Below, one piece after another: positions 32,041 through 53,399 of a DNA stretch of 64,000 bases. Under the pieces are notes generated by a model. That model searched no databases, had not been told where the DNA came from, and was given only the letters and a program-made list of their open reading frames with translations. This DNA is from a virus, in the IMG/VR virus record IMGVR_UViG_3300025030_000067, positions 1 to 64,000 of that record, one strand, 5' to 3'. The translations under genes were made by a program, and so were the position numbers. Position 1 is the stretch's first letter, and each line of letters starts with the position of its first letter.

Positions 32041-33480
32041 TTATGGCGCAGTGTATGTACCGCAGTTTTTGTAGATCATCACTCGTTCAGGAGCTTTGAT
32101 CACGGAAACGATGTACAGCAGCAGCATGAACGGGAAGGTTGTGCCTACCTGTGGCAGCGGCATTTTGATAAGCGGTGTCATCTGAGCGATGGCGATGTCG
32201 CGTGCGTCCGGCTTGATCACCAGTGCGATGCCGTCAGAAGGTTTACCGGCTGCATCCACAGTGCTCCATTCGCCCTTGTCAACGAAGGTCAGGTCGCCGG
32301 AAGCGGTCTGCGCAACCTTGGCAATCCATTTCGCGTCAGAACCGTTTGCCAGCTTACCGCGATAGATGCGGTATCCAGTAGCGCCGGCCAGGCGGGTAAC
32401 TACGATGGTCACCTTTGTGGTGGCATCAGGTACTGCAATGGCACTGGTAATGGTCCCGAGGGATTCGCCAGTGTCGTTGAACGCGGCCACTGTGTAGTAA
32501 TATGTGGCGGCGAGGTGCTGACCGGCAGCGTCGTCGGCTGCTGCTGGCTGGGTTGTGATTGCTGGTGCGGCAGGAACGCCAGCCGGTGCGGCAGCCAAAG
32601 GTGCGGCAGCTTCGACTTCCTGGAGCAGAATGGAGTAGTCGAAATTGAACCGACCGAACTGCGTATCGTATCCGTCAAGGTTTTGTCCCAAGGAATACGT
32701 CGGCTGCTGTCCGCCGTCCTTGTTGAAGCGAACCATGTTGCGGGATGCGAACTGCTGGTTCAATCCTGCGGTTACGTGTGCCGACTGCAGCACGTTGTAC
32801 CCGTTGACACTGGCCTGCTTGCCGGTGGTTACCAGGGACTGGGCGGCAACGTCCAGTTCATTGAAAGTCAGGGGAGCGCCCTTCATATCAATTACGTTCG
32901 CCGAGTTGGCAGCGGTCAGTGCAGCCAAGAGCCCGTCGAAGTTTACTTCTTCGCCGTTCTCGTCCTTGATTGCAGACTGGCCGAACACCAATTCACGCTC
33001 TACTTTTTCGAGAAGCTCCAGCGTGCGGTCACGGTTCTCGCGGACGGTGGGGTCTTCGAAAGCGCCGCCATTCTGTCCAGTGATCAGCATCTGGTGAGTG
33101 ATCCCGCCGAGTACGCCGAGGAACTTGTTGTAGATACCTTTACGCTCAAACGTAGAGGTTCCGCCCTTTGGTGCCCCGCCCTGACGGAAGCCAGCGCCAC
33201 CGCTGCGGTTGGAACCGAAGCCTTTGTGGACGTTGTACTCGTAGTAAGGCTGCGCACTGGGAACCTTGGGGAGCATGTTGAACAGCTTGAAGTGCTGCTC
33301 GGTGATGAGTACTTCTGTCATCACTGCATCCAGGTTTTCCAGCATGAGTGGTCCGGACTGAATGCCTCCGGGACCGCTGTTGGTGGTTGCGAGTGCTTTG
33401 CGCAGGTCGTCGACGATACCGTCACCGGTCTGGTTGTAGCCACCGCTTTTCAACATCTGATCGTAACTTTGTACTTCCAT
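32041..33480 (-). CDS. major capsid protein (SPO1/Twort-like)
   Basis: LRKAL...PLMLENLD N-terminus, E..LVFG...FDGL, inserted Ig-like domain (YYYTVAAFN..GES, GYRIYR), PLIKMPL; follows protease and scaffold. Confidence 0.9.
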   Translation of the reverse strand: MEVQSYDQMLKSGGYNQTGDGIVDDLRKALATTNSGPGGIQSGPLMLENLDAVMTEVLITEQHFKLFNMLPKVPSAQPYYEYNVHKGFGSNRSGGAGFRQGGAPKGGTSTFERKGIYNKFLGVLGGITHQMLITGQNGGAFEDPTVRENRDRTLELLEKVERELVFGQSAIKDENGEEVNFDGLLAALTAANSANVIDMKGAPLTFNELDVAAQSLVTTGKQASVNGYNVLQSAHVTAGLNQQFASRNMVRFNKDGGQQPTYSLGQNLDGYDTQFGRFNFDYSILLQEVEAAAPLAAAPAGVPAAPAITTQPAAADDAAGQHLAATYYYTVAAFNDTGESLGTITSAIAVPDATTKVTIVVTRLAGATGYRIYRGKLANGSDAKWIAKVAQTASGDLTFVDKGEWSTVDAAGKPSDGIALVIKPDARDIAIAQMTPLIKMPLPQVGTTFPFMLLLYIVSVIKAPERVMIYKNCGTYTAP

Positions 33481-33511
33481 TTGGGTGTTCCTCCTTTTGT
33501 TGTACGGTGCT

Positions 33512-34198
33512 TTACAGACCGATTATTTTTTTGACGTCGTCGGGGAGACGGCCAACGTCTTTGTAAGTGCCGAATATCGACAGGTGACGAGCGTCTACCT
33601 GCCCTGCCTGTACTGCTTTTGTCAGCGATTCTGAAATATCAGATATTGATTTGGTGAGTTCCTCCACCACTTCAACACCGCCGATGCCGAACTTAGCCTG
33701 GCCGGGAGATAGTGGTTTCGCTCCGAGTTCGGTTACCGACTTCTCGATGCGTTCCATATCTTCATGGCGAGATTTGGCAAGGGATGCGATCACCTTGGCC
33801 TGCTTGATGTTCAAATTCAGCAGAGCAGCGACAGACTTTTTCAGCGAGTCAACTTCGCCGGCAAGGCCTACCGTCATCTCCTGGACCGATTTTTCGAGAG
33901 ACGCGAACGCATCGCTGGCTTTTACCAGCTCTTCATCGTAGTTCTCGTCCTGCGTGGATTTGTCGAGGTCGGCTTCACCTTCGCCATCTCCCTCTTCTTC
34001 GCCAACGGGCTCTGCGCCTTTGTCGTCCTCGTCACCGTCCGGCTCTTTGTGGCTTTTGGTCAACTCATCGCCGAGTTCTTCTTCCAGAGACTTGGTCAAC
34101 TCGTCCAGTTCGTCTTTGGGCTCTTCTTTGACGGACTTTTCAAGATCATCAAGCTCTTCCATCGCCTTATCTAAGGCTTCTTGATTCTCTACACTCAT
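33512..34198 (-). CDS. scaffold-like acidic head protein
   Basis: Acidic coiled coil with about a dozen (L/I)xK(S/A) motifs, between protease and MCP. Confidence 0.75.
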   Translation of the reverse strand: MSVENQEALDKAMEELDDLEKSVKEEPKDELDELTKSLEEELGDELTKSHKEPDGDEDDKGAEPVGEEEGDGEGEADLDKSTQDENYDEELVKASDAFASLEKSVQEMTVGLAGEVDSLKKSVAALLNLNIKQAKVIASLAKSRHEDMERIEKSVTELGAKPLSPGQAKFGIGGVEVVEELTKSISDISESLTKAVQAGQVDARHLSIFGTYKDVGRLPDDVKKIIGL

Positions 34199-34225
34199 TC
34201 GCGTTTCCTCCTTTTGATTTGCTGC

Positions 34226-35182
34226 TTACGGTTTATGTAAAATTCCCGCTGCCTTTACTAACGCTGCGAGGTCTGGCCTGTATTGGGCACCATGTATTGC
34301 TTTCCGCAGGAAGTTGATGCTCTGGCCTTTTGAATATCCCTGACATTTTTGCATATGTTCGACGGCCCCGGTCAGACCACCGTTGAACTTCCCGGCTGAG
34401 TTAAAGCATCCGCAGTCCGTGTTGTTGCCGTACAGGATGCCGCTCATGCCTCTGTCGAGGTTTTCCAGCATGAGTGGTCCGGCTGACGTAGTGGACATCG
34501 CTTTATTCAGATCTTCGACGTCTTCTTTGCTCATAGGTGCATGTGCTCCACAGCTGTGCCCTGGGGTATAGAGCGGGTGATCTGGTGAGCATTTGCCGCA
34601 GCAGAACGACTTACGGAAGAGCTCTATGGTGGCATCCTCGTTAACCGGCTTGTGTGTCACTGCGAGATTGCAAACTACCGACCTCACGATCTTGTTGCCT
34701 TTGCGCTGCAGCACTCCGCCTTCTACCGAATACGCCAGTGCTCGTTTGCCTCCGGACTTTTGAAACGCGAGCCCCAGCTCCCACATCTCGTCGGCCAGCT
34801 TGGTCTGCTCGCTGGTGGTTTCTCCGGTGGGTTTGAGCAGTTCTCCTTCTACCCATAGGCCTTTGTCTCTGATCTCAGCTCTTGTGGGATAGCCGATGAT
34901 GATCGGCATCTTGGCGCCTTTGACTACTCCGCAGCTCGGGCACTTGGACAGTGCATGGATGTGTCCGCATTTGAGGCACTTGGCGTAGTGGTCATAGTTC
35001 AGGTATCCGGATTTCATAAGCGGTCCGAAGTCGATTCCGGATTGCAAGATAACTTCACCGTCCTGGTCCATGCTTTCGGTGGATGCGTATCCGCGAACGA
35101 TACGGCGATCTCCACCTGCGCTCTTGCGTAGCTCCATCTCGATCGGTAACTCAAACAGGACTTGGTTGTCGGTTTCTTCCAT
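34226..35182 (-). CDS. prohead protease (HK97/U35-like)
   Basis: GYASTESMDQDGE, LNYDH, GLWVEGEL, YSVEG (catalytic Ser), AVTHKPVN. Confidence 0.88.
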   Translation of the reverse strand: MEETDNQVLFELPIEMELRKSAGGDRRIVRGYASTESMDQDGEVILQSGIDFGPLMKSGYLNYDHYAKCLKCGHIHALSKCPSCGVVKGAKMPIIIGYPTRAEIRDKGLWVEGELLKPTGETTSEQTKLADEMWELGLAFQKSGGKRALAYSVEGGVLQRKGNKIVRSVVCNLAVTHKPVNEDATIELFRKSFCCGKCSPDHPLYTPGHSCGAHAPMSKEDVEDLNKAMSTTSAGPLMLENLDRGMSGILYGNNTDCGCFNSAGKFNGGLTGAVEHMQKCQGYSKGQSINFLRKAIHGAQYRPDLAALVKAAGILHKP

Positions 35183-35259
35183 CTGCTGCCCCTAGAACAC
35201 AAAAAGACGGCTCCGGGTTTACCCAGATGCCGCCTATAACTGCGCTGACTCGTAGTTGC

Positions 35260-35454
35260 CTATTCGCCGTTTGCGCCTGTCAAGCGTTGTTTCGTAACTT
35301 CGATGTTGCCTTTTGGTGTTACCGTTATGTTTATTTCCTGCCCTTTGAAGTAAAAACAGAGCGGGAAATCATCTCTTTTAAGCACTGGTATTGCCGCCGT
35401 TTCTGCCTGTTTGCTCTTTCGGAGCAGATATATCAGCTTCGGGGCTTTGTTCAT
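35260..35454 (-). CDS. small hypothetical protein with LRKS motif
   Basis: 64 aa immediately downstream of a box-containing promoter. Confidence 0.5.
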   Translation of the reverse strand: MNKAPKLIYLLRKSKQAETAAIPVLKRDDFPLCFYFKGQEINITVTPKGNIEVTKQRLTGANGE

Positions 35455-35462
35455 TTGTTCTG

Positions 35463-35500
35463 ATTCTAAATATCGCTGTAGCGTATGTCAAACATTTTGC
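35463..35500 (-). promoter_or_regulatory. putative promoter containing the 13-bp box (head genes)
   Basis: Minus strand GCAAAA-tgt-TTGACA-N17(tacgctaca...)-TAGAAT. Confidence 0.7.
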
Positions 35501-35821
35501 TTACGGTTTTCCACCATATCGCTTTTTGTCTTTAATCCTTCTGTTTGGTCGCTTGCTGGTCATGTACGGTCGCTCGACTGTCATGATCTTTGTCACATCC
35601 TCGTCCGTGACGAACCGCCAGTACTCAGCGACGAAGTATCGGGCTGGCGTAAACCCGTTCTTGATGGTTCTGATGGCTGCTCCGTAGCCAAGGTCTACCT
35701 CTTCTGCTGTAGCTATGAGGCGGTCAAGTTCGGTCCGGTAGCATGGCGGTGGTTCGCTTTCCCATCTCTTCAGGAAGCGCAGCCAGGCATGCCTGGTGAT
35801 TTCTGCTTTGCGTAGTGGCAT
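35501..35821 (-). CDS. hypothetical protein (ITRHAWLRF motif)
   Basis: 106 aa, coupled to the upstream gene (TAATG). Confidence 0.6.
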   Translation of the reverse strand: MPLRKAEITRHAWLRFLKRWESEPPPCYRTELDRLIATAEEVDLGYGAAIRTIKNGFTPARYFVAEYWRFVTDEDVTKIMTVERPYMTSKRPNRRIKDKKRYGGKP

Positions 35822-36729
35822 TAGTAACGGATCCCGGCTCTAGCTTTGAGTAGGCCCATCTTCTTGACCTCTGCCATCTTGGAGTAGTAGTGCGGATCCT
35901 CGTCGAGATGTACCAATACGATTTTGGCGATCTTGGTCTCATCATGGTCCACAACGTCGGCATGCTCTTGCTCGTCGAACATGCCGTCACAGAATTCGTC
36001 CAGGTTGTACCGTTTCCAGTCAATGCCCATGCTGTCGCCCAACTGCTTACACATAGCTTCACCGGACTTTTTAAGTTCCTGCGGCATTCCTCGCCTTGCG
36101 GCAGCCAGCAGGTCTTCTGCCGTCAGAGGACGTCCGGCCTTCACCGATGCCTCGTCAATGGCTCGCTGGGCTCTGTCTCGGAGTTCGTCTTCTCTGAAAA
36201 GCCGTCCCGGACCTGTTTTGATGCCGTTGTCGGATTCTGTAGGCGGAATATACTGGTTCCCACTCTGCAACTTTTTACCCTTCATGCTGGTCAGTGCTTC
36301 TTTGAATTCACCGAACGGCCAGATACTCATGCTGCCAAAGAACCGTGGCTCGCTGTAGGATGCGTGGAAGGCCCGGACAGCTTCTCCAGGCGTGTTCAGG
36401 CCGACGAAACACTTGTCTTCGTCGTACTCAGTGAAATCCGGGGCTCTGGTTGTATGGACTACATAGACCTCGGAATTTGCGGAGGGATCTGGCCCAACAA
36501 AGACGTCTACTGCATCTCCGTCTGTGGCCAGCGTGCCTCTTATGTAACCGTATGGTAGCGACATTCTGCTCATGCCCTGGCTGCCGTCCTGCGGATTGTG
36601 CCATTCGCGACATCGGCTGCGTCCGGTCTCGATGCTGATCGGGAGACCATTGAAGTTGACCCTGCCATGGAGCTGGCGGGATTTGATCAGTGATGGTAGG
36701 TGCTTGATACTTTTTTTGTCTTCTATCAT
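35821..36729 (-). CDS. inorganic-pyrophosphatase-like domain plus DUF5661-like domain
   Basis: GLPISIE...YGYIRGT..DGDAVDVFVGP...YDEDK (phage InPase-like); EQEH...HLDEDPHYYSK C-terminal domain. Confidence 0.75.
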   Translation of the reverse strand: MIEDKKSIKHLPSLIKSRQLHGRVNFNGLPISIETGRSRCREWHNPQDGSQGMSRMSLPYGYIRGTLATDGDAVDVFVGPDPSANSEVYVVHTTRAPDFTEYDEDKCFVGLNTPGEAVRAFHASYSEPRFFGSMSIWPFGEFKEALTSMKGKKLQSGNQYIPPTESDNGIKTGPGRLFREDELRDRAQRAIDEASVKAGRPLTAEDLLAAARRGMPQELKKSGEAMCKQLGDSMGIDWKRYNLDEFCDGMFDEQEHADVVDHDETKIAKIVLVHLDEDPHYYSKMAEVKKMGLLKARAGIRY

Positions 36730-37127
36730 GCGATGTCTCCGCTTACCTTGCTGTAAAGTTCCCCTGGCGATACCTGTCTTGGGCTTAAGCCCATTGCTGC
36801 GGCTGCCAGCTCAGAGCAGTACCAGCGACTGGGGTCGTCGAATCCAAGCGTAATAAGTCCAAGGATTCCCAGCCAGTCGTAACCCTTGCCGACTTGATTG
36901 AGAAGCCATGGCGCATCTTTCTGTAATTCAACTTCAACCACATCCCAGTTGTCCCGGTTAAAAGTCGTTACTGGAGCGGTTCGGACTTTTCCTGACCAGG
37001 CGTCGGCGGCACAGGCTATCCCACCCACTACAATCTCGACGTGGCTGTACCGGCTTTTCGTCCACCACCTGATCACCTTGTCAAAAAACTTGCCCGGAGC
37101 TTTATAAAACCAGAGCTGTGCTTCCAT
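36726..37127 (-). CDS. permuted papain-like (NlpC/P60, C92/YiiX-like) peptidase
   Basis: YSHVEIV ... GYDWLG ... WYCSEL (His before Cys). Confidence 0.75.
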   Translation of the reverse strand: MEAQLWFYKAPGKFFDKVIRWWTKSRYSHVEIVVGGIACAADAWSGKVRTAPVTTFNRDNWDVVEVELQKDAPWLLNQVGKGYDWLGILGLITLGFDDPSRWYCSELAAAAMGLSPRQVSPGELYSKVSGDIA

Positions 37128-37234
37128 GCGTCGCCTCCGTTATTTTCAGTCCCAGCATCCAACAGGGAAATGTTCGGGGCAGCAAAAGAAATCCTTGCAG
37201 CCTCGGCATTGTTCTCCGAAGCATGGGTTCTCAC

Positions 37235-37666
37235 TTACTTCGGTTGTCTCTTCCGTATCGCGTACCAATATTTTAATTCTCCGCTTTCCAATACGTTAAT
37301 TCCCTGCCACAGCTTGTTCGGGTTTGGGTCGTGGACCACTACGCCATTCTGGTCGATGATTATCGCGTGAGTGGCGTTCTCAAACGTCTTGCTTGCCACG
37401 CAGGCCTCGAAGTAACCGTCTACGCTGTCTGTCAGCTCCAACCGATCTTTGTCCGGCATTAAGCACCCGATGTATTCGTATCCCATGGCGTAGAGGAAGT
37501 ACCAGTACACGTCAAACCAGCCGCGTTCCGGAAACTTGCGGAAGTTCGGCACCTGGTCAATTTCGAGATCAAATAAGCTGGCAACTACCGCTCGCTGGCA
37601 GTCTCCGGTACCAACGCAGACGATTGTCTGGTATATGGGTGTCATTGTTTCTTTTCTCCTGGGCAA
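37235..37666 (-). CDS. hypothetical protein, papain-like Cys-His-Asp pattern
   Basis: GDCQRA...THAII...VVHDPNP. Confidence 0.55.
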   Translation of the reverse strand: MPRRKETMTPIYQTIVCVGTGDCQRAVVASLFDLEIDQVPNFRKFPERGWFDVYWYFLYAMGYEYIGCLMPDKDRLELTDSVDGYFEACVASKTFENATHAIIIDQNGVVVHDPNPNKLWQGINVLESGELKYWYAIRKRQPK

Positions 37667-37741
37667 TTATTGCATCCGAGTCCGCAGGATCCGTCGCAAC
37701 GCTTCTCTTTTGTAACTGGGCACCGAAAGCAGGTTGCCATG

Positions 37742-40700
37742 CTATGCCTCCAACTGTTTAATGTGGCGTTCGAGCATGGCGCCGACTTCTGCCGAGCCTT
37801 GCTTGCCGAGCCGTTCATGACCTTTGTATTTAAGGATGTTTTTAGCTGTTTTGGCGTATTTTTCGGGGGTCGAATAATCCGGGTGGTCGGTGTTTATCCC
37901 CATGCCGCCGCGACCTTTTTTATCGTGCCGCTCGAATGCGTCGTGAAGTTCCTTGACCATCTCATGGTGAGGTTGCCCTTTTTGCGCGACATTCGCTGTT
38001 GCTCCGGATGCTGTGGTGCGAGTGTATGCAGCATGATCGGAGTGCTGTGACTTGCGTAAGATATGCGCTACAGAGAGGGCACAACTTTTCCTGACTGGCT
38101 CCTGTACTGTTTTGGGGCTTCCGTCGCCCTTTGGTCGTTTCGACTTGATCAGGTACATTTCACGTCTCCTTCCCTTAAATAACCTCACTTGCAGTAGTCC
38201 TGAGTGATCACCCGGGAGATGATCGGCCATGGGCTCTTTGTTTTCTTTGGCCGGCATGTTTTCTTCTTTCCATTTTTCCCAATGGGTGTGGGCTCCGTGG
38301 ACCTCTTCTTCTGCATCGAGTATCCGCTGCTTGGTGTGATCATCCAGTGTGCCCCAGTGGGGGAGGTGGGCGAACCGTTCCTGTCGCAGTTTATGGAGCT
38401 GGTGGCTGCTCTCGGTACGTGCCAGCTTGATTGCGTAACGCTTCACTCGGCTGTCTTCGTGGGCATCGATGTGTGCAAGTGCCCCGGATGCAGTCGTGCG
38501 GTCGTAGGCTGTGACGTGCGATTTCAGGAGCCGAACGGCTGCGGTTTCGCTGCTGACTCGTCCTTGCCTGCCTGCTCTCGTTTGTTCTTGGGTTTCTTCT
38601 TTTTGGACTTTGCAGCTGCAGCTTTCTTCTTGTCCGCAACATCCATTGTGTCCGCATCCGCAAGAGCTTTTTTCAAGAGTTCCGACTTCTTCTTGTACTT
38701 TTCCTCGTCGCTTAATTCCGCCATTGCTTCCTCCGTGCGATTTTATCAGGTGTGTTAAGGCTGGCCGCTGTAATGACTTTTTCACACCATCATCGGAACT
38801 ATTCACCTTGTCAAGAGCCTGCTTTACGACCTGCTCTTTGTTCTTTGGCTCCGCTGGTCCCGAGAACATGTCCACCTCGGGGTTTTCCCGGCTGGCAACC
38901 TCGTTTTTGATGCCGTTGCTGATGGCTCGGAAGACGTTTTCCAACCTGTTGCGAGATCCGGCTCGGTCGCTGATCGCCAGTATCATGTCAACGGAGTGAT
39001 CAGTTTTGAACTTCGGGGTGTCTCCGGTGAAGTCCAGCGAGCCAGCGTTTTTAAGAGTGTGCTCCAGCTCTGCCTTACTCTGGTTCTGGTGTGCCAGTGT
39101 GTACTCGATCGCTTCCATCATGTCCGGCACCACGTCCAGGTCGTCATGGCCTTTGATCTGGGCGAAGTCGCCGACGCACCCGTTCAGCGCCTTGAGTATG
39201 TTCCTGATCTTCGGCTTGGCGCTCTCGGCTTGCAGCTCGGTCAGCATGGAGCTGCCGTATACTTTCGTGAAGACCGCGTTCTGGATCCGCTCGATGCATT
39301 TCTTGTTCGGGTCGCCGTCAGCATCGCGCAGGCCGGCTGATTCGTTCTTGCCCAGCTTGTCGAGGAATCCATTGATGAAGTCCATATTTTCGTCGTTGTA
39401 GATTTCACCGTCTTCGTCGACCGCGAACTTCTTGAGCAGGCTGTCGTCGATTCTGGCCGAGTCATTCCATGCCTGTTCTGCTGGCGAAGAGCCGAGGTTG
39501 CCGGTGTCGTTGGCTTCTCTGGCAAACTCTGCCCGGTCGGTATTTTTGTCGTCATCGCTGCGGACTCTGACCAGTACCGGGTTTTTCATCTTCTCGACAT
39601 CTTCCGGCTTTATGCCGAACGTGTCCGCTTCGCCTTTCAGCCATTCCTTGTAGTGATCCGCCAGTCCGCGCTTGTACGCTTCCGTCAGGGCGATGGTGCG
39701 ACCATTGCCGCTTTCGACAGCTCCATCCTTGCCGACGATTGGAGCGCCATGAGCAGCCATTGAACCGGCACCGAAAAGTTCCGGCTTGATATCGTTCATC
39801 ATGTTTGCCATTTGCATCTGGCTCGATAGGCGTTCCCGTTCTCGGGGCTGTATCTCTTGAGGGTAAGCTCTGTTGATATGTCCCTGGATGGTGTGGGAGG
39901 TCGTCAAGTCGTCGGATTCCACCAGCGCATACTTACTGCTGACCTCGTTCATCTTGGCCGTGTAGGCTTTGTTCTCTTTGCCCATGACGAACTTAGGCTC
40001 TTTCTTGCCGGTGTCCACGCTCTGGACTTCCTTCTTGCCCTGGAGGCTGGATATCTGCTCTTTGTCCTTGCTCGGGTCGCCACCGGCGAAGTGTACCGTG
40101 TGGCCGTCGCTATCCTTCGACATGATTATGGAGTGGCCGTCTTTCTCGTATTTCGTCGCGGTGCTGTCGCGATCGACCTGGTGACCGTAGTGCTTCAACA
40201 GCTTCTCGCGGTAGTCGTCAATGGCCGCCGTGTAGGTGTTGCTCCGGCTGGTGTTTATGTTCTTGAGTACTGAGACTGGGTCGTCGCTGGCTGCTGCGGC
40301 TTCGCGCATCTTCTTCATGCCGCGTTCGGCTGTCTGTAGAGCTCCGTTCTCCCGGTTCTTCGCCTTGATCTCTTCATGCTCCGGCATGTCTTCTTTTTTG
40401 CCGCCCTTGTGCCCTTCGATTGGCTTCACCTGATGGACTTCGCGCTCTTTCCAGCCTCGGCTCTTGAGGTGTTCGGCCAGCTGATCGCCGTGTTTCAGTT
40501 TGGCTCCCGAGTGTATCTCTTCTCCATGCTCATTTTGGTGCTTGAGCACGTCCTGGTGCTTCTTGACACGTTTGTCGTCGTGCTCTTGCACTACCGAGCC
40601 GTCCTGCCTGGTATATTGCTTTACGTGGGACTTGATCAGCATGGACCGATCCATGAGATTGTCGGCTCTCAGGCTCTTGGTGAATATGTCGATATCCATC

Positions 40701-42727: not shown

Positions 42728-42952
42728 GTGGCTAAATCAACGGTAAATATTGGCAAGCGAACGGCAGAACAGCAGTTCTATGCCGAGGCAGAAATTTTGG
42801 TATCGACTCCTGCTGGAGAGGGTGTCTTTTATGGCATGACTCATAGTCGCAATTCCTCACAGGAAGTTCTGGCGAAGGTCTGTTACGTCGATAGCATTGT
42901 GCTGGTCCCGCTTTCTGATGTGAAGATCGTACGGTCTGGAGGTGTCGCATGA
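42728..42952 (+). CDS. hypothetical protein
   Basis: First ORF of the plus-strand island; ATGA overlap with the next gene. Confidence 0.5.
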   Translation: MAKSTVNIGKRTAEQQFYAEAEILVSTPAGEGVFYGMTHSRNSSQEVLAKVCYVDSIVLVPLSDVKIVRSGGVA

Positions 42953-43257
42953 AAGGCTTGCGTTGTTCGATCTACCAGAATCCATCTGGTAATTTTTCTG
43001 CTGGTGGCATCTCGTCGCGGGTTCGTCAGGTTACTTTGGTTGGAGAAGACATCGATGGTGTCTTTGAACCGTCTGACGATGCGCCTGCCGTGCATCTCTG
43101 CAAGCGTCAGCTTACCGAAGATCGGGAACATGTCTTCGCAAAGCCGGTGGAGTTTGGTGCCTCGCATTCTATGATGGGCGGTTGTTTCATCTGGACGTCC
43201 GATGGCCGTTTCCCGGCAAACTATCCCATCCCTTTGCATGATCGCGTTGAGTCGTAA
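42949..43257 (+). CDS. hypothetical phage protein
   Basis: GGAGG RBS; MMGGCFIWTSDGRF..YPIPLHDRVE motif. Confidence 0.7.
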   Translation: MKGLRCSIYQNPSGNFSAGGISSRVRQVTLVGEDIDGVFEPSDDAPAVHLCKRQLTEDREHVFAKPVEFGASHSMMGGCFIWTSDGRFPANYPIPLHDRVES

Positions 43258-46684: not shown

Positions 46685-46742
46685 TCTGATAGACAGCAGT
46701 AAATAGTCCTGATATAATTGCGGCATATTCCCTGGAGGGTGT

Positions 46743-47123
46743 ATGCCGCTTTTGTGTCCGGACTGTGCATATTCTGCTGACGAAGACGAACCTTACTGCT
46801 CCCGCTGCGGTCATGATCTTGTGCGTTCGCTCCGGCAGCGCAGTGTCCCTGTTGTGGTTCCTCGACAGGAGGTGGTAGTTGATCGCTTCAAGGTCAACTG
46901 CGTCTGCTATGGAGAGGTTCTTCGGTTTGATCCGGTTGACGAAGCGATGTCGTCTGTATTTCGCTGCGCCAAGTTCCAGCAGCGTGTTGATTGCATCGGT
47001 TGCCCGATCTGCACCAAGTGTGGGCAGCTCAAGTGTACTTGCGGTTTTGTCGGCATATCCATCGATGTGAAAATAAAAGGCACCGTCATCGAGACAGTGC
47101 CTTTGCGTGATCGGCTGGAATAG
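46743..47123 (+). CDS. Cys-rich zinc-ribbon protein
   Basis: CPDC..CSRC..CIGCPICTKC; GGAGG RBS. Confidence 0.6.
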   Translation: MPLLCPDCAYSADEDEPYCSRCGHDLVRSLRQRSVPVVVPRQEVVVDRFKVNCVCYGEVLRFDPVDEAMSSVFRCAKFQQRVDCIGCPICTKCGQLKCTCGFVGISIDVKIKGTVIETVPLRDRLE

Positions 47124-47129
47124 CTTTAG

Positions 47130-47690
47130 TTATGCGTTTTTCTTTGCTGCCCATTCCCTGTGGTATTTATTGTAACAATCCGCATGATAATAATTTTTCT
47201 TGTGTTTTTTCATATTAGCAACGTCATCGTACTCGTGACACCCACTACATTTTCTCCAGTCTTCGTTTCCGCACTCTTTTAATGCAATCATCTTTCGATG
47301 TATCGTTTGATGTTCTGCCCGGTTCTTGCAAATCACTATTCCATACTTGTCGGTTCTTCCTTTGTTGTTATCCGTATGGTGAACCACTGCTCCAGGAGGC
47401 AATGGGCCACCTATCATTTTTTCTGCGATAACAATATGTTCAAGCACATATCCATTGGAGCACGAACGCGGATGTTCTGGCATCAGGATCGTATTGTAAC
47501 CTTTTGCTGTTTTGCGGTTGCCGCCTTTCCATTGGCTATGTTTTTCTCCATGTTGAGGTGGATTGTGCCCTGGACAATACTTGTTTGGGTCTCCTTTTTT
47601 GATGCCGAGCCTGGCATTGCTTCTGCTTTGGAATTTCGTCTTTCCTCCGCATCCACAGTGACACTCTCCGTATGAAATATCTTTTTCCAT
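47130..47690 (-). CDS. HNH homing-endonuclease-like protein
   Basis: Probable start MEKDISYGECHCGCGG; WKGG, GYVLEHIVIAE, VVHH.DN...EH..IH motifs. Confidence 0.75.
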   Translation of the reverse strand: MEKDISYGECHCGCGGKTKFQSRSNARLGIKKGDPNKYCPGHNPPQHGEKHSQWKGGNRKTAKGYNTILMPEHPRSCSNGYVLEHIVIAEKMIGGPLPPGAVVHHTDNNKGRTDKYGIVICKNRAEHQTIHRKMIALKECGNEDWRKCSGCHEYDDVANMKKHKKNYYHADCYNKYHREWAAKKNA

Positions 47691-47694: not shown

Positions 47695-48927
47695 TTAACC
47701 ACCTCTGTTTCTGTGTTTTGCCCACGTCTCATGCCCGGTGTACTCATACGGCCCAGCACAGGCACACCAAGGGTGGACAAGTCCAGCAACGGCCTTGAGT
47801 GTTTCGGCACCATCGCTTCTCCCGCCTGGTACTGTTTTGCCCCCACGGACGGGGTGCGGCTTACGACCTATATTTGTTCCGTTATTGATCAGGCGCGACA
47901 GCTTAAACAGCCGGGGTGTTTTCCCGTCTTTCTGTAAAAAAAGGTGTTTGCATTGAGCGCAGGCATCCGGCATCGGTCTCTTGTAGACCAGTTTATCAAT
48001 GTTGCCGTCCTGCAGCAGCTTGTGCGCCATGCCTTGTTTCTGTGCGTCCGTCAGCTCATAAAACGCCACTCGGTCCCAGTCTCTTGCCTTGTCGGTCATG
48101 GTATGGTGCAGCTCGCTCGAAAACTGTCGCCACGTCTCGACCGGCCTGTCTGGTGTCGCTATCCCCTGCATCTGCTTCTCGTCGCGGTCCAGCACCTTCC
48201 TGTTGAGTTTCCTCGCGTGGAAGTCGATTGCCATACTGCGCACTGTTTCGGCCTGCTTCTTCGCCCACAGTTTCCCGGCTTCCGTCGCAAGATCGGCTGC
48301 ATTGTTGGTGATGAAGTTCGCTGTCTGTTGTTCGGCCACGGCGATCGCGTGTAGGTCGGGTGCCAGTATCGGCGCATGAAGTGCCAGCTGCATGACCTCC
48401 TGGTATGTCTTGCCGGCTTCCACCGCCTCGATAAATTTACCCATCAAGAAAGCGTTGCGAACGAAGTACATCTCTGCCGGTACCGAGGCAGCGAAGGTTT
48501 CCGGGGTAATCCCGGCATCCACGAGTCCGAGTTGCTTCCATCGTTCGAGCAGATCGGGTGCTGGCTGATAATCCACCGACTGGATCTGGCCGGCGACGAA
48601 TGCGAACCGGTCGTTGATTGCCTGTTGTAATTGTCTCAACTGATCGGCGGTCAGCGGGGAATGGGAGACCGCCTTTTCCAGCTCTCCCTTGTTGATCATC
48701 CTGGCGTACCGTTCGATATCCCTTGCCGCCTGCCAGTACTCCTGCTGCATCATGTGGAACAGGATTCTCATGGCCTTGGTCCGGGGCTCCTTCGGGGTGT
48801 TGTCACAGGCGCAGGCCTTGGTCAGTGTATCGATTACTTCTGGTTCGATACCGCTGGCCACTGCCATGCCTGAGAGCGCCTTACGGAGCTGGTCGTCGGT
48901 GAGGTTGTGTTCGACGGTCAGGTTCAT
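47695..48927 (-). CDS. head morphogenesis protein (gpF/SPP1 gp7-like)
   Basis: DWDRVAFYE, ACAQC, HPWCAC motifs; downstream of the portal. Confidence 0.7.
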   Translation of the reverse strand: MNLTVEHNLTDDQLRKALSGMAVASGIEPEVIDTLTKACACDNTPKEPRTKAMRILFHMMQQEYWQAARDIERYARMINKGELEKAVSHSPLTADQLRQLQQAINDRFAFVAGQIQSVDYQPAPDLLERWKQLGLVDAGITPETFAASVPAEMYFVRNAFLMGKFIEAVEAGKTYQEVMQLALHAPILAPDLHAIAVAEQQTANFITNNAADLATEAGKLWAKKQAETVRSMAIDFHARKLNRKVLDRDEKQMQGIATPDRPVETWRQFSSELHHTMTDKARDWDRVAFYELTDAQKQGMAHKLLQDGNIDKLVYKRPMPDACAQCKHLFLQKDGKTPRLFKLSRLINNGTNIGRKPHPVRGGKTVPGGRSDGAETLKAVAGLVHPWCACAGPYEYTGHETWAKHRNRGG

Positions 48928-50285
48928 TATTTCGCCGATCTGTTGTGCTCTTTGACCATATTCATGTGCAGGTCTTCGTCGGCTGAGTCTTTTTCGGCGT
49001 GCCCTGCGGCTTTCAGGTGGAGTGCCGCCGCTTTTGCGTGGTCCTCTTTTGTTTTCGCCTTGTCGCCGACCTCGAACGCCTCTTTATCGGCTGCCTGGTA
49101 TTCTGCGGATCCAGATCGGAACTTGCTGCCTGCTGGCTTCTCGGGTGCTTTGGCTTTTTTATCATGCTCTGCAGCCAACTCGTGCTTAACTGCAATCTTG
49201 GAGTGGACATCGAAAGCCGCATCGTCATGTTCGTTTTTAGCCATTTCCATGGCTTTGTTGTTGAGTTTGGCGGCTTCTTGGTGGTCTTCTTTGTTCCCGG
49301 ATGCAGTCGCTTTTTTACTGGCAGAGAGTGCAACCTGTCGCATGCCGTCTTTGCCACCTTTTTTGTAATAGTGTTCCGGTTCTGACGATTTGTTTGACTC
49401 TGTCGCCTTTTTCTCGTGCTCTGCAGCCTTGGCTTCATGCTCGGCACTTCCCTCGCTGTCGTAGTCCAATTTTGCCGCTTCCTTGTGGGCATCGGCTGCG
49501 GCCTTGTGGTCGTCGGTTGTACCGCTCTTCTTGGCTTTGTCGCTGGCTGCGTATGCCTTATCGGTGGCGCTGATGGCAATACCAGACAGTCTCTGAACTT
49601 CCTTTCCGTGGGTTCTGGCTTCACCCGTGTGAAAATCAGCCTTTTTCTGGGCTTCTTTCTCTCCTGGCTTACCGTAATGCTTATTTGCAAGCGCCATGTA
49701 TGCGGTTGACGCTCTCATGTGCTGTTCCATCGCCAGCATATGCAGGCTGCTGCGTTTATTCAGCGTTGCGCTGTCGTGTGATGGCAGTTCGTTCCCTTTA
49801 TCGTCATGGGACTCGCTGAATGCATGCCTGGTGATTTCGTTTGCGTGGTTGCCAGAGTTTTCTGCATGATTTTCTTCATTGCCGCGATGGTAGCTCGCCA
49901 TGCTGTGATTGGCCTGCAGGTGTCGGCTGGCTGCGTGCATGTGTTCGTTGATCTGTTCGTTGGTTGATGCGTGTCGAAGTGCCTCTACGTGAGCGTGAGC
50001 AGCGTCTGCATGGTTGGCGGCGACTACCTTCGTATCTCTTGGGTCGTCCCAGTTATGTTTTGCCTGAGTTTCTTCAGCAAGTTTGCTGGCTTTCTGTGCT
50101 GCCTGCCGCTTGTCGTCATGTTCTTTTACCTGGACGCTGGCCCCCGACGCCGTCGTGCGGGTGTATTCCTTGACGTGGCTTTTTCGGAGTGCCTCGGTAT
50201 GGATGCTTCCGCCGACTTCGCTCTTTTTCAATTGTTCCACGGCTTCTGATGCCTGATCGATGGCTTGTTTAAGTTCGGTGTTCAT
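48927..50285 (-). CDS. His/Ala-rich putative internal head protein
   Basis: LKKS/LRKSHVKEYTRTTASG leader; repeated HxxAAxxH helices. Confidence 0.65.
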   Translation of the reverse strand: MNTELKQAIDQASEAVEQLKKSEVGGSIHTEALRKSHVKEYTRTTASGASVQVKEHDDKRQAAQKASKLAEETQAKHNWDDPRDTKVVAANHADAAHAHVEALRHASTNEQINEHMHAASRHLQANHSMASYHRGNEENHAENSGNHANEITRHAFSESHDDKGNELPSHDSATLNKRSSLHMLAMEQHMRASTAYMALANKHYGKPGEKEAQKKADFHTGEARTHGKEVQRLSGIAISATDKAYAASDKAKKSGTTDDHKAAADAHKEAAKLDYDSEGSAEHEAKAAEHEKKATESNKSSEPEHYYKKGGKDGMRQVALSASKKATASGNKEDHQEAAKLNNKAMEMAKNEHDDAAFDVHSKIAVKHELAAEHDKKAKAPEKPAGSKFRSGSAEYQAADKEAFEVGDKAKTKEDHAKAAALHLKAAGHAEKDSADEDLHMNMVKEHNRSAK

Positions 50286-50298
50286 TGAGTATCTCTCC

Positions 50299-51627
50299 TT
50301 ATGGCATAGTCCAGATTAGGCCGTGGCCTTTTGATGCTGCCCATTGCTTGGCGTGTTTCTTGGCTTCGGCATATGGCATGTTCGGTGTCACGATGTAGTC
50401 TTCGCCTTCCTTGTGGTTTGCGAAGTCAATCTTTCTATTCTGGCTGAACATCCATCTGCCTGTTCCCTTCGGTGTCTTACCGTGGGACATTTCGTGTTCA
50501 GTAGTTTCTACCGTTACTCGCGAGGTTGGAATGGCTGGTTTGCTCTGCGTTGCGGAGGGAGCCGGGGTTTCTGCTTTCGGTTCTTCCTTGATCTTGGAGA
50601 TGTACCGTGCGTAGTCGTATCCTTGCGAGTCCACCAGATACCGGTTGCCGTTCGTATGCTTCAGGATGAATGATTTGTGGCCGTTGGCTTCTTGCTTCTT
50701 CATGAACTCTTTGCTGAATGAGGTTCCGCCTGGCACGATCTCACCTTTGTATGTTCTCGGGTGTGTACCGTATACTTCGCCCATGGTGTGATGCCTGGCC
50801 TCGGTGCCTTCGACTTCTTTGGCTGGTATATGTGGCGGGTGCCCGTTTCTGGCATCGTCGCTGTCGGCATGACTAAATTTTTCCAGTTTTGAGTGCATCC
50901 TTTTCACGTACCGGTTTGACACCTGCTGCAGGTGCTCGCTTGCTTCCGTTTCGGTCATGTCGGCTTTCGGAGCTGCTGCTTTCTCTGCCATCATCTTCAC
51001 ATCGGACAGGACATCGTGAGCTGCTTTGGCTGTTGGGTTGGCTTTGAGGGCTTCCAGCTTGTGGTCGATGAATGGTTTGTATTCGGCCATCTTCGGGTCG
51101 GCGGCTATCTTGGCTACCGCTTCGTGGGTCATACTCACCAGTTTGGCGACGTGCTGTTCATGCTCGGTTTGCTCTGGATTGGCTGCGAGCTTGTCTTGGC
51201 GATTTTGCTCACGCTCGTGCTCTAAAGACGTTTCAAAGTGGTGTTGGTTTTTTCGCATGTGGTATGTGTATGGCGATGAATCTTCTTTATAAAGTTTTGC
51301 TGCTTGATGGTGGAGGTTCATGGCGTGCTGATGGGCTGCAGCAGCCTCGGCGTGCGTGTGGGTGCTGAGTCCATTAGTGGCAAGATCGTAGCTGATATTG
51401 TCGGCGTGGTGGCTGGCTTCCATGTGGTGTTCGGGAAGCCCTTGCGCTCCCTTTGCCTGAATGTGGCTCACGGTGCCGCTGGCATTCGTTCTTTCGTACC
51501 CGACGTGGTGCGGATCCCCAAACAAGCTCATTTGGCTCTTCTTGAGGATTTCTGCCATCTGCTGGCCGAGGTCGATCGCTTTCGCGAGGTCTTCAATTTC
51601 TTTACTCATGGTGGCTGGCTCCTTCAT
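50299..51627 (-). CDS. His-rich putative internal head protein
   Basis: LAKA/LKKSQMSLF...YERTNASG leader shared with the polyprotein. Confidence 0.65.
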   Translation of the reverse strand: MKEPATMSKEIEDLAKAIDLGQQMAEILKKSQMSLFGDPHHVGYERTNASGTVSHIQAKGAQGLPEHHMEASHHADNISYDLATNGLSTHTHAEAAAAHQHAMNLHHQAAKLYKEDSSPYTYHMRKNQHHFETSLEHEREQNRQDKLAANPEQTEHEQHVAKLVSMTHEAVAKIAADPKMAEYKPFIDHKLEALKANPTAKAAHDVLSDVKMMAEKAAAPKADMTETEASEHLQQVSNRYVKRMHSKLEKFSHADSDDARNGHPPHIPAKEVEGTEARHHTMGEVYGTHPRTYKGEIVPGGTSFSKEFMKKQEANGHKSFILKHTNGNRYLVDSQGYDYARYISKIKEEPKAETPAPSATQSKPAIPTSRVTVETTEHEMSHGKTPKGTGRWMFSQNRKIDFANHKEGEDYIVTPNMPYAEAKKHAKQWAASKGHGLIWTMP

Positions 51628-51665
51628 CGTTTCGTTATATTGGTTAAGCCATGTGTCTTGAATGA

Positions 51666-53399
51666 TCAGTCGAGTGTGATCTTGAGGAACTTCGTCTCGG
51701 GCTGTGACTTCCGCATTGACTTGTAATACTGGTCACTGTCGCCGCCCTGTTGATCGTCTCCCTGGTCTTCGTCCTGATCCGGTTCTTCTTCTGCCTGTTG
51801 CTGCTGTGCGAATGTGTTCAGGTAGTTCGGGATCGGCACGTCTGCAGGGTAATTCCATGGGTTCTTGTCGTACTTCTCTTTGTTCTCGTCGCCCTCCTGG
51901 AGCTTGCTGTACTGCTCTGGCGGCAGGTAGAATCCGATGGGGGCTCCGCCTTCTTCCATGCGACATTCGTTCTTGGTGATCCATTTGGAGACTCGGCTGG
52001 TGCGGATATCGACCGCCTGTTTCTCGTCTTCCGGGTTCAGGCCAACAACTATCAGCTTGAGGTCGTCATATCTAGGTTTAATGAGTGCGTCGGTGAGCCA
52101 TTCCGCCATGTCGGTGATGGAAGGGATGAGTCCGTGTTCTTTCGAGAACTCAATTTCTCCGGAGGCATTACCGGCAAAGATGCTACCGCCGCCTGCGCCA
52201 CTGTCGGTCTCCATGTTCAGTGTGCTGGGGTGGGCTCCGTAGGCCGAGCATTTGAACATGACCATCATCCTGATCATCTGGTCGAACAGCATGTCCTTTG
52301 GAGACTCGCGGAGCTTCACGCTTTCGATCTTGAAGTTCTCCATGTCGCCGGCAGGGATTACCGGCAGGCGCCAGTTGTTGCCGACTCCACCAGCCTCGCC
52401 AAGTATCTGCTGCTTGAACGCGGCCAAGCCTTCTTTGTCGTAGTCGCCGGAGACCGTCAGCACCTGCTCGGGATAGTTGGTCTTGAACATCTCGCGGTTG
52501 TATGTGAATGCCATGAGCAGGCTGGTGGTGATGTCCAGTGACTCTTCCAAGCGGGATGTACCGTATCCCCATCGGTTGAGCCGGTCGCTCGGGTTACTGA
52601 TGTGGACGCTGATTTCGTCGTCGGTGAATGCAGCTGTGATCATACCGTCGATCATCTGGACATAGCTGGCACGGGCGAGGTCAAACCCGGTGGAGTACGA
52701 CATCTTGTTTATCGTGTCTCGGCCTACCTTGCCGTTGCTCTCGTTCTTTTGAGCCCATGCCCGAATTGACTCATCCACGTTCTTGATCGTCTCTCCTGGC
52801 AGCCAGTGGAATGCTGCGTAGCCTTGGCCGTCTCGGCGTTTGTATCGGAGGATGCATTTGCGGTCGATGATCAGCTCCGTGCGGGTCAGAACGCCGACGA
52901 GGTCTTTCAATCGGGTATGTGGCCGGACGTTGTGCGGGTAGAGGTAGATGTGTTCGGTGGGCGTCGGGTCGCTGATGAATTTCTCCATCTCGTGGCAGCG
53001 TTCTTTATCCTGTCTGGTGACCTTGTAGTCGGGATCATCTGCGCGGTCGTGAACAACTCTGAATCCAATCTCCTTGTTCTTGCCCTCATTGGCCTTCTGC
53101 CAGATGCGTTTCTGCTGGTCGGTCCGGGCTCTGATCAGGATGCGGTCGAGGGTGGATTTTTCTGCGGCTTCGTACAGGATGGAAAACTGCGGGGTGCCTA
53201 TTGGCTTTTCTCGGGCTCCCATTACTATTGAGTTGTTTAATGCGAATTTGGAGAAGAAAGACGCTTTATTTTCGTCTCTTCGCATTTTATTAGCTTCTGA
53301 TTTTATCAGGTCGTCCGCTGAATGTTTTGGCACCAATAATCCTGATGAAAGTTGCACTGACTCTTCAAACACTCTGTTCAGGAATAATTTGTTATGCAT
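51666..53399 (-). CDS. portal protein
   Basis: 577 aa; NP...YGTSRLE, NREMF..NYP, DMLF, AYGAHP..L, T.NECR motifs; acidic tail; head module position. Confidence 0.88.
   Translation of the reverse strand: MHNKLFLNRVFEESVQLSSGLLVPKHSADDLIKSEANKMRRDENKASFFSKFALNNSIVMGAREKPIGTPQFSILYEAAEKSTLDRILIRARTDQQKRIWQKANEGKNKEIGFRVVHDRADDPDYKVTRQDKERCHEMEKFISDPTPTEHIYLYPHNVRPHTRLKDLVGVLTRTELIIDRKCILRYKRRDGQGYAAFHWLPGETIKNVDESIRAWAQKNESNGKVGRDTINKMSYSTGFDLARASYVQMIDGMITAAFTDDEISVHISNPSDRLNRWGYGTSRLEESLDITTSLLMAFTYNREMFKTNYPEQVLTVSGDYDKEGLAAFKQQILGEAGGVGNNWRLPVIPAGDMENFKIESVKLRESPKDMLFDQMIRMMVMFKCSAYGAHPSTLNMETDSGAGGGSIFAGNASGEIEFSKEHGLIPSITDMAEWLTDALIKPRYDDLKLIVVGLNPEDEKQAVDIRTSRVSKWITKNECRMEEGGAPIGFYLPPEQYSKLQEGDENKEKYDKNPWNYPADVPIPNYLNTFAQQQQAEEEPDQDEDQGDDQQGGDSDQYYKSMRKSQPETKFLKITLD

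Follow-up and report, generated by a model that had tools for sequence, protein, structure and literature searches.

A short Lys-Ser/Ala motif as putative prohead protease site in the core head proteins and candidate injected cargo of an apparently uncultured myovirus

The locus described here raises the question of why one and the same four-residue motif, ending in Lys followed by Ser or Ala, should recur both in the proteins that build a phage head and in neighboring proteins of non-structural appearance. The DNA analyzed, called the window in the following, is the first 64 kb (positions 1 to 64,000) of the virus record IMGVR_UViG_3300025030_000067, which counts 90,534 bases and is rated complete in IMG/VR. 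Its head module, delimited by open reading frame (ORF) scans with Pfam and PHROGs and by homology, occupies 32041-53399 on the minus strand. Read from the portal end, it encodes the portal, a 442-residue and a 452-residue protein, a 410-residue minor capsid protein homolog and, beyond an island of plus-strand genes, a 1504-residue protein, two small ORFs, a protein joining InPase and DUF5661 domains, a 64-residue protein, the prohead protease, the scaffold and the major capsid protein (MCP). A first-pass annotation of this DNA had proposed that the prohead protease chops the motif-bearing proteins inside the head, releasing enzymes for injection. The analysis reported here points in the same direction: with a probability that we would put at about 0.55, a protease of the S78 type would cut core head proteins and cargo alike, and the resulting units would be ejected with the DNA.

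The motif was counted over the whole 90.5-kb record in a broad form, [LIFMV]xK[SA], and in a strict form, L.K[SA], each site being numbered by its first residue and the predicted cut lying after Lys; the expectation for each ORF was obtained from 300 composition-preserving shuffles. The head set consisted of 12 greedily selected minus-strand ORFs in 32041-42256 and 47695-53399 and was picked after the data were seen; the small ORFs 37073-37234, 42399-42656 and 42883-43239 were counted among the 120 other ORFs, and ORF 35501-35821 fell outside the greedy set. The head ORFs contain 50 broad motifs against 14.8 expected (Poisson P=5e-13), whereas the others contain 57 against 53.5; for the strict motif the figures are 37 against 4.6 (P=2e-21) and 16 against 16.0, respectively. 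A strict motif is located within residues 1-40 in 10 of the 12 head ORFs and in only 2 of the 120 others (Fisher P=1.4e-11). Considered singly, the proteins enriched over the shuffles are the scaffold (12 observed, 0.97 expected), the protease (7 and 0.89), the 1504-residue protein (13 and 4.63) and the 64-residue protein (2 and 0.24). The comparison between head module and other ORFs, which the first-pass annotation had proposed as a check of its idea, came out in its favor, and the motif copies that it had listed are all present in the respective genes. It might be objected that the pattern is an artefact of chance or composition in Leu/Lys/Ser-rich helical proteins, and the scaffold and the internal proteins are indeed rich in L, K, E, S and A. 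This explanation is rejected by the shuffles, which keep that composition, by the counts in the two groups of ORFs and by the N-terminal placement of the motif, and the site columns are moreover conserved among relatives; its probability can be considered negligible.

The enzyme that would read the motif is encoded at 34226-35182 (minus strand), a prohead serine protease of 318 residues (phrog_1028, E 1.7e-41). Homologs were found by tblastn in 753 phage records, nearly all of Herelleviridae, that of YungSlug being 34% identical across 90% of the window protease (E 4e-33). The proteases of phage K, P200 and YungSlug (26.7, 23.4 and 26.5 bits, respectively) pass the 21-bit cut-off of Pfam Peptidase_S78 (PF04586), the HK97 gp4 family. 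Residues H65 (in NYDH) and S152 (in YSVEG) are invariant in 7 sequences including the three Herelleviridae proteases, as well as in 9 close relatives, and are the presumed catalytic pair. The enzyme carries the motif seven times (LRKS 18, LMKS 55, FQKS 140, FRKS 189, LNKA 225, LRKA 292 and LVKA 308), and 6-8 sites are preserved in IMG/VR relatives whose proteases are 44-74% identical to it. It is predicted to be divided into an N-propeptide (residues 1-20), a catalytic domain (residues 21-191; 34610-35122) and a C-terminal domain (residues 192-318; 34229-34609) containing a third site, K227|A228. The residues K20, S21, K191 and S192 that flank the first two of these cuts are, like H65 and S152, invariant in the 9 relatives, and all six but K20 also in the three Herelleviridae proteases; sites 20, 191 and 227 lie in segments of the structure model where the predicted local distance difference test (pLDDT) is <50. 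Past K191|S192 the protease holds a near-copy of the MCP N-arm, EDLNK|AMSTTSAGPLMLENLD versus DDLRK|ALATTNSGP..GPLMLENLD in the MCP, a likeness that is also found in phage K, P200 and YungSlug, and this MCP-like C-terminal arm may be the route by which the protease enters the prohead. Searches of PDB sequences with the protease, both as a single sequence and as a profile, gave no meaningful match; when its structure model was submitted to Foldseek, the 10 best PDB rows were all herpesvirus assemblins or T4 gp21, with weak scores (herpes simplex virus 1 8bq1, E 0.01; pseudorabies virus 4cx8_B, prob 0.94; T4 gp21 5jbl_B, E 0.074). Two further traits of the enzyme can be mentioned: a CxxC...CxxC insert beside the catalytic His (residues 69-84; 34931-34978), which among the 9 relatives is common only to that of locus L013 (related loci bear L numbers here), and a second Cys/His-rich stretch after FRKS, kept in 8 of the 9.

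The sites in the proteins that form the shell fit such an enzyme. The MCP (479 residues; 32041-33480, minus strand; phrog_752, E 4.9e-49) is 25-29% identical to SPO1-like MCPs and carries MLKS 9, LRKA 26 and VIKA 460; cuts at K11|S12 and K28|A29 would remove a propeptide of residues 1-28 (33397-33480). Positions 9 and 26 are retained in four related loci (L004, L005, L010 and L011), and K28 occupies one of the 33 invariant columns of a 6-sequence alignment with the MCPs of phage K, P200 and YungSlug, where the Lys of ALK|SF in Listeria phage P200 and that of VVK|SF in Staphylococcus phage K stand in the same column. The scaffold (228 residues; 33512-34198, minus strand) has 12 LxK[SA] sites, whose cutting would yield fragments of 10-34 residues; in relatives having 44-74% protease identity, the scaffolds possess 11-13 sites, mostly in common alignment columns, and those of Herelleviridae are also rich in the motif (phage K, 7 against 1.18 expected; YungSlug, 11 against 1.17; P200, 3 against 1.3). 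The portal (577 residues; 51666-53399, minus strand; phrog_12, E 3.8e-22) has LIKS 31 and MRKS 562: the N-terminal site, K33|S34, which would release a leader (53301-53399), has been retained by all 3 orthologous ORFs, and the C-terminal MRK|S in 1 of 2 distinct relatives.

The 410-residue product of 47695-48927 (minus strand), called gpF-like in the first-pass annotation, gave no match in Pfam and PHROG scans, and shares 27-32% identity with a gene product of Bacillus SPO1-like phages, annotated as minor capsid protein in phage Nachito. Its motifs LRKA 14, LTKA 35 and LEKA 83, with predicted cuts at K16|A17, K37|A38 and K85|A86, include leader sites retained in 3 of 3 orthologs (L019, L024 and L025). 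In the phage of L012/L019 the minor capsid gene seems to be present as two ORFs (L019:11357-13058); between them, and overlapping both, is a homolog of window ORF 37235-37666. In HK97 gp5, whose scaffold domain comprises 103 residues (as given in the available part of PMC10275583), FNK|S stands at 101-104, at the end of that domain, and the 3 other motif copies all lie inside it. By homology, the capsid protein, scaffold and prohead protease of the head module are distantly related to those of the Herelleviridae/HK97 (Peptidase S78) system. On the basis of this chain of homology to S78 proteases, of the K28 column and of FNK|S in HK97 gp5, the motif is very probably the prohead protease cut site in the core head proteins.

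Whether the same code extends to proteins other than those of the shell can be judged from the non-structural-looking products of the head module, each of which opens with a leader of 5-37 residues ending in the motif. Its occurrence in the 442-, 452-, 302-, 64- and 1504-residue proteins had already been reported in the first-pass annotation and is borne out. The 302-residue protein (35821-36729, minus strand) has LIKS 14 before an InPase domain (PF18823, 90 bits against a cut-off of 26.8, residues 21-146) and LKKS 219 before DUF5661 (PF18905, 45.4 bits against 27, residues 228-288), and might be cut into a leader (1-16), an InPase fragment (17-221; 36067-36681) and a DUF5661 fragment (222-302; 35824-36066). 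The leader motif is kept in 4 of 4 relatives, namely the stand-alone proteins of L004, L011 and L015 and the fusion of L012, at 3-4 residues before the conserved LHGR/LQGR with which the InPase domain opens; in L018 the InPase domain occupies 225-456 of a protein with an N-terminal copy of the module described below, and the ORF of L013 begins inside the domain. The 64-residue protein (35260-35454, minus strand) carries MNKA 1 and LRKS 11, the latter closing the leader ...YLLRK|S. In 10 of 10 orthologs, whose ORFs all lie immediately upstream of the protease gene, LRKS is present at residue 11 or 16. A PVLK..DFP core of this protein, for which no family match was obtained, is conserved in related loci.

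Two candidate internal head proteins are encoded near the portal. The 452-residue one (48927-50285, minus strand), rich in His, Ala and Lys, has LKKS 19 and LRKS 33; its leader (residues 1-35; 50181-50285) is followed by a copy of a junction module (50088-50180; E 1.1e-18 to a local profile), and the L019 ortholog keeps LNKA 7, LQKS 22 and the module. The 442-residue one (50299-51627, minus strand), with LAKA 14 and LKKS 28, has a leader of residues 1-30 (51538-51627) and then a SQMSLF variant of the module (E 9.6e-15 to the local profile). The ESM Atlas gave no usable match for the former, and no family match was found in Pfam or PHROGs for the latter. In YungSlug (L009:1604-4213), an 869-residue protein with a PARP domain lies between the minor capsid homolog and the portal; the motif occurs in it at chance level (3 against 3.64), and it is possible that this protein is a packaged effector in a tractable cultured phage of the Spounavirinae.

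At many cargo sites the motif represents the first four residues of a longer element that the first-pass annotation had overlooked. This module, LxK[SA]-HV-x-x-Y-x-R-x-T-x-SG-x4-V-x-E-HDD-S-R, has a length of about 30 residues and is present in the window in 4 clear and 2 degenerate copies. A profile built from 13 copies and run against 1.84 billion proteins retrieved 683 cluster representatives at E<=1e-3, of which 111 reach <=1e-10, and the best 150 of the 683 hold 305 module copies; Lys is found in 100% of 293 aligned copies and is followed by S or A in 98%, figures that are biased, the profile itself having included these columns. The Pfam scan, which covered 78 of these 150 proteins, revealed as partners of the module InPase, DdrB-ParB, DUF5661, ART-PolyVal, Zeta_toxin, SAM lyase, RadC, LPD3 and ParB_N. 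In the 26 proteins with domains, the motif is depleted within the stretches matched by Pfam, which hold 20% of the residues: 7 copies lie inside them and 156 outside (P=4e-9). No Pfam family covering the module itself was found in the 78 proteins at E<=1e-4, and 6 small proteins and 2 window copies gave only sub-threshold chance rows at E<=10. A search with a degenerate DNA pattern returned 9 loci, and where context existed (L018 and L021) the module proteins adjoin this MCP and protease family. Of 224 anchored copies, 151 are internal; the other 73 fall in the first 40 residues, 3-35 residues from the N-terminus, and are preceded by short leaders of variable sequence, for example MLLLK|S.

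The module could also be regarded as a folded binding or targeting unit, for DNA, the capsid interior or the portal, in which Lys-Ser/Ala is structural and the likeness to a protease site coincidental. The equal conservation of K and S/A with the rest of the module is what one folded unit would show, and the internal copies amount to about two thirds of those anchored. We nevertheless consider this improbable: joints without the rest of the module have the same four residues (LRK|SASIHQKTICVDF before HAD, SLIK|SRQLHGR before InPase and FTK|S after HAD), the scaffolds and MCPs of the same phages use the motif without the module, and the N-terminal copies stand behind leaders.

The most extended case is that of the 1504-residue polyvalent protein (37742-42256, minus strand), whose 13 sites are located at 15, 395, 405, 525, 540, 1020 (ILKA), 1158, 1170, 1194, 1243, 1369, 1388 (VRKS) and 1400. 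Its predicted products are a leader (1-17; 42206-42256), a sigma-like fragment (18-397; 41066-42205), a HAD cassette (408-527; 40676-41035), a fragment composed of the module and DdrB-ParB (543-1160; 38777-40630) and several C-terminal fragments (1161-1504; 37745-38776). According to the first-pass annotation, the motifs of this protein fall at domain borders; the sites that it listed are present, ILKA 1020 and VRKS 1388 not being in its list, and the borders proved to be cassette breakpoints among relatives. The L012 ortholog (1735 residues, 63% identical) keeps the motif in alignment with 15, 395, 405, 525, 540, 1020, 1158 and 1194. InPase, a separate gene in the window (..SLIK|SRQLHGR), is fused at the C-terminus of the L012 polyprotein after ..FLIK|ARPLHGR; the DdrB-ParB unit, fused in the window at LIK|SHV, is a separate ORF of 1441 residues in L004, with the leader ..LFK|SHIRQYTR, whose residue 24 corresponds to window residue 540. 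Twenty-one homologs of residues 18-397 were compared: the 20 that have an N-terminus all read hydrophobic-x-K|SQ(M/L)xLFD, and 20 of the 21 close the domain with (F/L)LK|S. In 6 of them the HAD cassette follows after LRK|(S/A), and the others pass directly to hydrophobic-x-K|SH(V/I); in protein P0007 the HAD cassette is found elsewhere, again flanked by the motif. Judging from these alignments, the HAD, InPase and DdrB-ParB cassettes are gained, lost or fused exactly at motif sites in relatives. A motif-bounded Cys-rich stretch, SSCGCGHNGCCGQEESCSC (residues 1197-1217; 38606-38668), is longer and different in L012.

Are these internal sites actually cut? It is conceivable that only the leaders are removed, the internal motifs being leftovers of cassette fusion that are poorly or never cut, and that the 1504-residue protein is packaged largely intact. 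The existence of fused and stand-alone forms of the same cassettes is the outcome expected from fusing leader-bearing genes; the AlphaFold2 (AF2) model places sites 397/407 and 527 in long helices of moderate confidence (pLDDT about 61-74 and 64, respectively), not in clearly disordered loops, and known systems remove mostly N-terminal propeptides, the cuts of T4 and of SPN3US being nearly all of this kind and not splitting polyproteins (for SPN3US, according to the available text of PMC10052503). On the other hand, K397, S398, L540, K542, S543 and H544 are among the 22 invariant columns of a 24-sequence alignment with 26% mean column identity, where K17, S18 and Q19 are also nearly invariant, whereas the surrounding linkers drift and vary in length; invariant joints amid drifting linkers argue for continued selection and not for relics. 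Moreover, the linkers, like the scaffold, carry motifs in tandem, two or three of them at intervals of about 10 residues. An uncut polyprotein is therefore rather doubtful, and cutting at both leaders and joints is preferred here.

Several of the units that would be set free can be identified by family and fold matches. DdrB-ParB (PF18763, 119.9 bits against a cut-off of 27.6) covers residues 770-899 of the polyprotein, and residues 747-1133 are 34% identical to P1 DdrB. The HAD unit matches phrog_1238 (E 3.2e-26 at 402-519) and has DFDGV, with the DxD motif, at 419-423; its fold, matched over 412-535 with Z values of 9.3 for 1xpj_A and 9.2 for AfhF of phage HY126, agrees with the predicted fragment 408-527; the Pfam and NCBIfam matches remain under their cut-offs. 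The HAD, ParB-like and pyrophosphatase-like identities assigned in the first-pass annotation are thus confirmed by family and fold matches, the latter two as DdrB-ParB and InPase.

For its "sigma-like" N-domain, three fold searches agree weakly but consistently, and sequence families lend no support. The AF2 model (residues 1-545, 24 sequences, mean pLDDT 71.1) was matched by VIA-align to sigma factors 7vpd_F (Z 8.6, 145-401), 4xln_F (Z 8.3, 142-398) and sigB 8x6g_H (Z 7.6), to the sigma-70 region-2 fragment 1sig_A (Z 7.2, root-mean-square deviation 2.1, 160-267) and to the sigma domain 4 of 4g6d_A (Z 6.9, 312-386), it being understood that Z below 8-13 can reflect a common helical arrangement. 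Foldseek retrieved many sigmaA and sigmaS chains from PDB at E 0.05-0.2 for the N-region model, and BFVD returned phage sigma factors from E 1.4e-3 (sigma-70 A0A0E3HNS4). No sigma family was found by sequence in Pfam at E<=10, in NCBIfam, in PHROGs or in a profile search of PDB sequences, the only Pfam row for this region being HTH_62 (E 0.026, residues 348-377), and the ESM Atlas gave no usable match. Residues 142-401 may thus be sigma-70-like on weak but consistent model-based support, graded as weak because the scores lie where helical proteins can match by chance. Ahead of this part, at residues 62-132 (41861-42073), a Tudor/PWWP-like beta-barrel is predicted (Z 7.1-7.8 to 6kco_A, 2l8d and 5yj8_A). 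In the same model the polyprotein leader lies in a segment with pLDDT<50, which would suit a cut at its end. A homolog of the polyprotein region, P0081, is labeled "hypothetical protein [Oryzomonas rubra]".

With a sigma-like fold, HAD and DdrB-ParB in one polypeptide, and with its gene between portal and protease, the 1504-residue protein has the make-up of a polyvalent protein. The paper on polyvalent proteins ascribes their processing to zincin-like MPTase domains (in the available part of PMC5512222), and one may ask whether a different protease does the cutting, be it an enzyme of the host or a peptidase domain within the cargo itself. Neither an MPTase nor any other peptidase domain was found in the 1504-residue protein and the other cargo ORFs in Pfam, PHROGs and NCBIfam scans, and the cargo motif is the same as in the scaffold, in the MCP and at the protease's own termini, which makes this alternative very unlikely.

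Putting these elements together, the following sequence of events can be proposed. The protease would enter the prohead via its MCP-like C-terminal domain and cut after Lys in (L/I/F/M/V)-x-K|(S/A), trimming its own N-terminus and splitting its catalytic from its C-terminal domain. It would remove residues 1-28 of the MCP, reduce the scaffold to peptides of 10-34 residues able to leave the shell, and take short leaders off the portal and the minor capsid protein. The cargo, co-assembled into the prohead, would be cut at leaders and polyprotein joints into separate units, i.e., a sigma-70-like protein, a small phosphatase of the HAD type, a nuclease-like DdrB-ParB protein, InPase, DUF5661 and His-rich internal proteins. 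The module would stay as a basic hairpin-like tag at the new N-terminus of most released units, which would remain in the head and then be ejected with the DNA, as P1 DdrB and other Dar proteins are. A more tentative extension, which we hold to be possible but not probable, is that the module acts as a portable cut-and-tag cassette border, by which the head protease frees tagged enzymes (the tag perhaps holding them on the DNA or leading them out through the tail), including a ready-made sigma-70-like protein that redirects the host RNA polymerase at the very start of infection. To our knowledge, no packaged sigma factor has been described.

Some observations weigh against the proposal that the protease processes both shell and cargo, in addition to those that favor an uncut polyprotein. 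The cutting, packaging and ejection of the cargo are deduced from sequence. As many as 57 chance-level copies of the motif sit in other ORFs, hence four residues alone cannot identify cargo. The count is not enriched over the shuffles in the MCP (3 against 1.04), the portal (2 against 1.29), the 442-residue protein (2 against 1.45), the 452-residue protein (2 against 1.70) and the minor capsid protein (3 against 1.11), where the motif is unusual by position only, and the copies at MCP 460, protease 55 and 140 and polyprotein 1020 fall inside folds and are probably uncut. Site 1170 of the polyprotein is lost in L012 (LTKT). Once the modules are masked, the motif is just 1.29-fold enriched in the 150 representatives (363 against 282), and the count of motifs outside Pfam domains given above is inflated because the proteins were selected for having the module. 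As for the enzyme, the window protease has no Pfam match even at E<=10, and its model, which is of low quality (mean pLDDT 58.6), gave weak fold matches, with none at E<=1e-3 in Foldseek and a best E of 0.01. An N-terminal LxK[SA] leader was looked for in the P1 Dar proteins and was not found. Finally, the capsid precursor of Listeria phage A511 is reportedly cut at a Lys-Ser bond, a finding attributed to Loessner and Scherer (1995), and the column of MCP K28 would be the position of that cut; a literature search for a paper giving the MCP cut of A511, phage K or phi812 found none, and the papers on Felix O1 and Bc431v3 contained nothing about Lys cuts.

The phage itself can be assigned to the myoviruses because of a tail sheath gene at 25866-27629, recognized by a family-library match. 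No near-identical DNA was found among cultured phages for the window, and a tblastn search of cultured phages with the module protein P0001, which has 5 copies, gave just 4 weak matches, all to its N-terminal 60 residues; prophage relatives, sought in 185,579 species genomes, were represented by one distant Bacillota metagenome-assembled genome and nothing else. The lineage thus appears to be uncultured. The plus-strand island that interrupts the minus-strand head module (43293-47675) encodes a DNA methyltransferase of 531 residues with DUF4942, the start of the portal gene is overlapped by that of an HNH endonuclease (53392-53868), next to which lies a gene resembling IS110-family transposases (54391-55398). 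ORF 36726-37127 (133 residues) matches phrog_1128 (E 3.7e-34, "enoyl-CoA hydratase/carnithine racemase-like") and has FYKA at residue 7. Another ORF, 35501-35821, was tried as a motif-bearing leader protein on account of LRKA at residue 3 and was discarded: the motif is missing in all 8 orthologous ORFs, and it was treated as chance.

Phage heads loaded with injected enzymes form a first line of counter-defense, and the processing of large polyvalent proteins has so far been a matter of conjecture, involving embedded metallopeptidases. If the proposed scheme is true, the mature products of hundreds of uncharacterized phage proteins could be predicted from sequence, cargo cassettes could be recognized by their borders, the leader or the module would offer a possible tag with which foreign proteins might be loaded into capsids of the HK97 type, and a virion-delivered sigma-like protein would represent a new mode of host transcription takeover.

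In order to place the system among those known, the closest comparison is that with HK97. Cutting between Lys and Ser is the archetype of that phage, and the window phage has with its gp4/gp5 pair in common, in all likelihood, the protease family (through the chain of homology), as well as the gene order, the hydrophobic-x-Lys|Ser site and, by prediction, a scaffold degraded at several sites. HK97, however, is without a separate scaffold or known cargo, the window protease is too diverged for Pfam, and the code of the window phage spans about 8 further proteins plus the internal joints of the polyvalent protein. The Herelleviridae (A511/P100, phage K and SPO1-like phages) have homologous MCP, protease and minor capsid protein, the same scaffold position, the MCP K28 column, motif-rich scaffolds and a protease C-terminus mimicking the MCP N-arm; they differ in that identities are of 25-34% only, that their genomes measure 130-160 kb versus 90 kb here, and that their portal, protease, scaffold and MCP genes are directly adjacent, whereas cargo genes and the plus-strand island lie between those of the window phage.

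The cargo side resembles T4, in which the prohead protease gp21 acts on an N-terminal leader plus protease site on the packaged and injected IPI-III and Alt, and in which the scaffold core is cut small; an N-terminal leader ending in a protease site is likewise the arrangement found in the 10 of 12 head ORFs (2 of 120 others), with leaders kept in orthologs. The available parts of the papers concerned describe the T4 cut rule as I/LxE (PMC12991175) and report that Alt and the internal proteins are carried and injected (PMC5512222). T4 thus cuts after Glu and the window phage would cut after Lys; T4 cargo is single-domain and loses its leader, neither polyprotein cutting nor a retained conserved tag being described for it. 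In SPN3US (gp245) and phiKZ (gp175), a short motif guides one protease in processing the MCP, the portal, the ejection proteins and the protease itself, and propeptides are cut several times, as would be the case here; the motif is A-x-E, however, N-terminal propeptides are what 13 of the 14 cuts mapped in SPN3US remove, and no code at cassette junctions is reported in the available text (PMC10052503). The polyprotein of the window is homologous to DdrB of the P1 Dar system (DarA, DarB, DdrA, DdrB, Hdf as well as Ulx). The accessible portions of two papers (PMC9024508, PMC12810830) describe the Dar proteins, DdrB included, as head-internal and co-ejected with DNA, DarA as cut by the prohead protease Pro and DarB as endowed with an N-terminal capsid-localization signal. 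Unlike the cargo considered here, the Dar proteins each have a gene of their own, located elsewhere in the genome, and the P1 protease is absent among the tblastn matches listed for the window protease.

The last term of comparison is represented by the polyvalent proteins that Iyer et al. (2017) describe from conjugative elements as well as phages, which combine DdrB-ParB, InPase, ART-PolyVal, Zeta toxin and LPD3 in large proteins of virion loci, as here, and which are predicted to be delivered with the DNA; the available part of that work explains their processing by the embedded zincin-like MPTase domains, and the word "linker" occurs in it 0 times (PMC5512222). The joints of the window polyprotein carry instead the prohead protease motif and an undescribed module, and family scans of it detect no peptidase domain; no paper in which a prohead protease processes polyvalent proteins came up in a literature search. 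That a single head protease reads a short code, and that injected proteins bear leaders, is a known principle, as T4, phiKZ/SPN3US and P1 demonstrate. Relative to the literature searched, as far as its available text extends, what is new is the presence of the code at joints within polyvalent proteins devoid of a peptidase, the turnover of cassettes at those joints, the widespread module and a possible virion-borne sigma-like unit.

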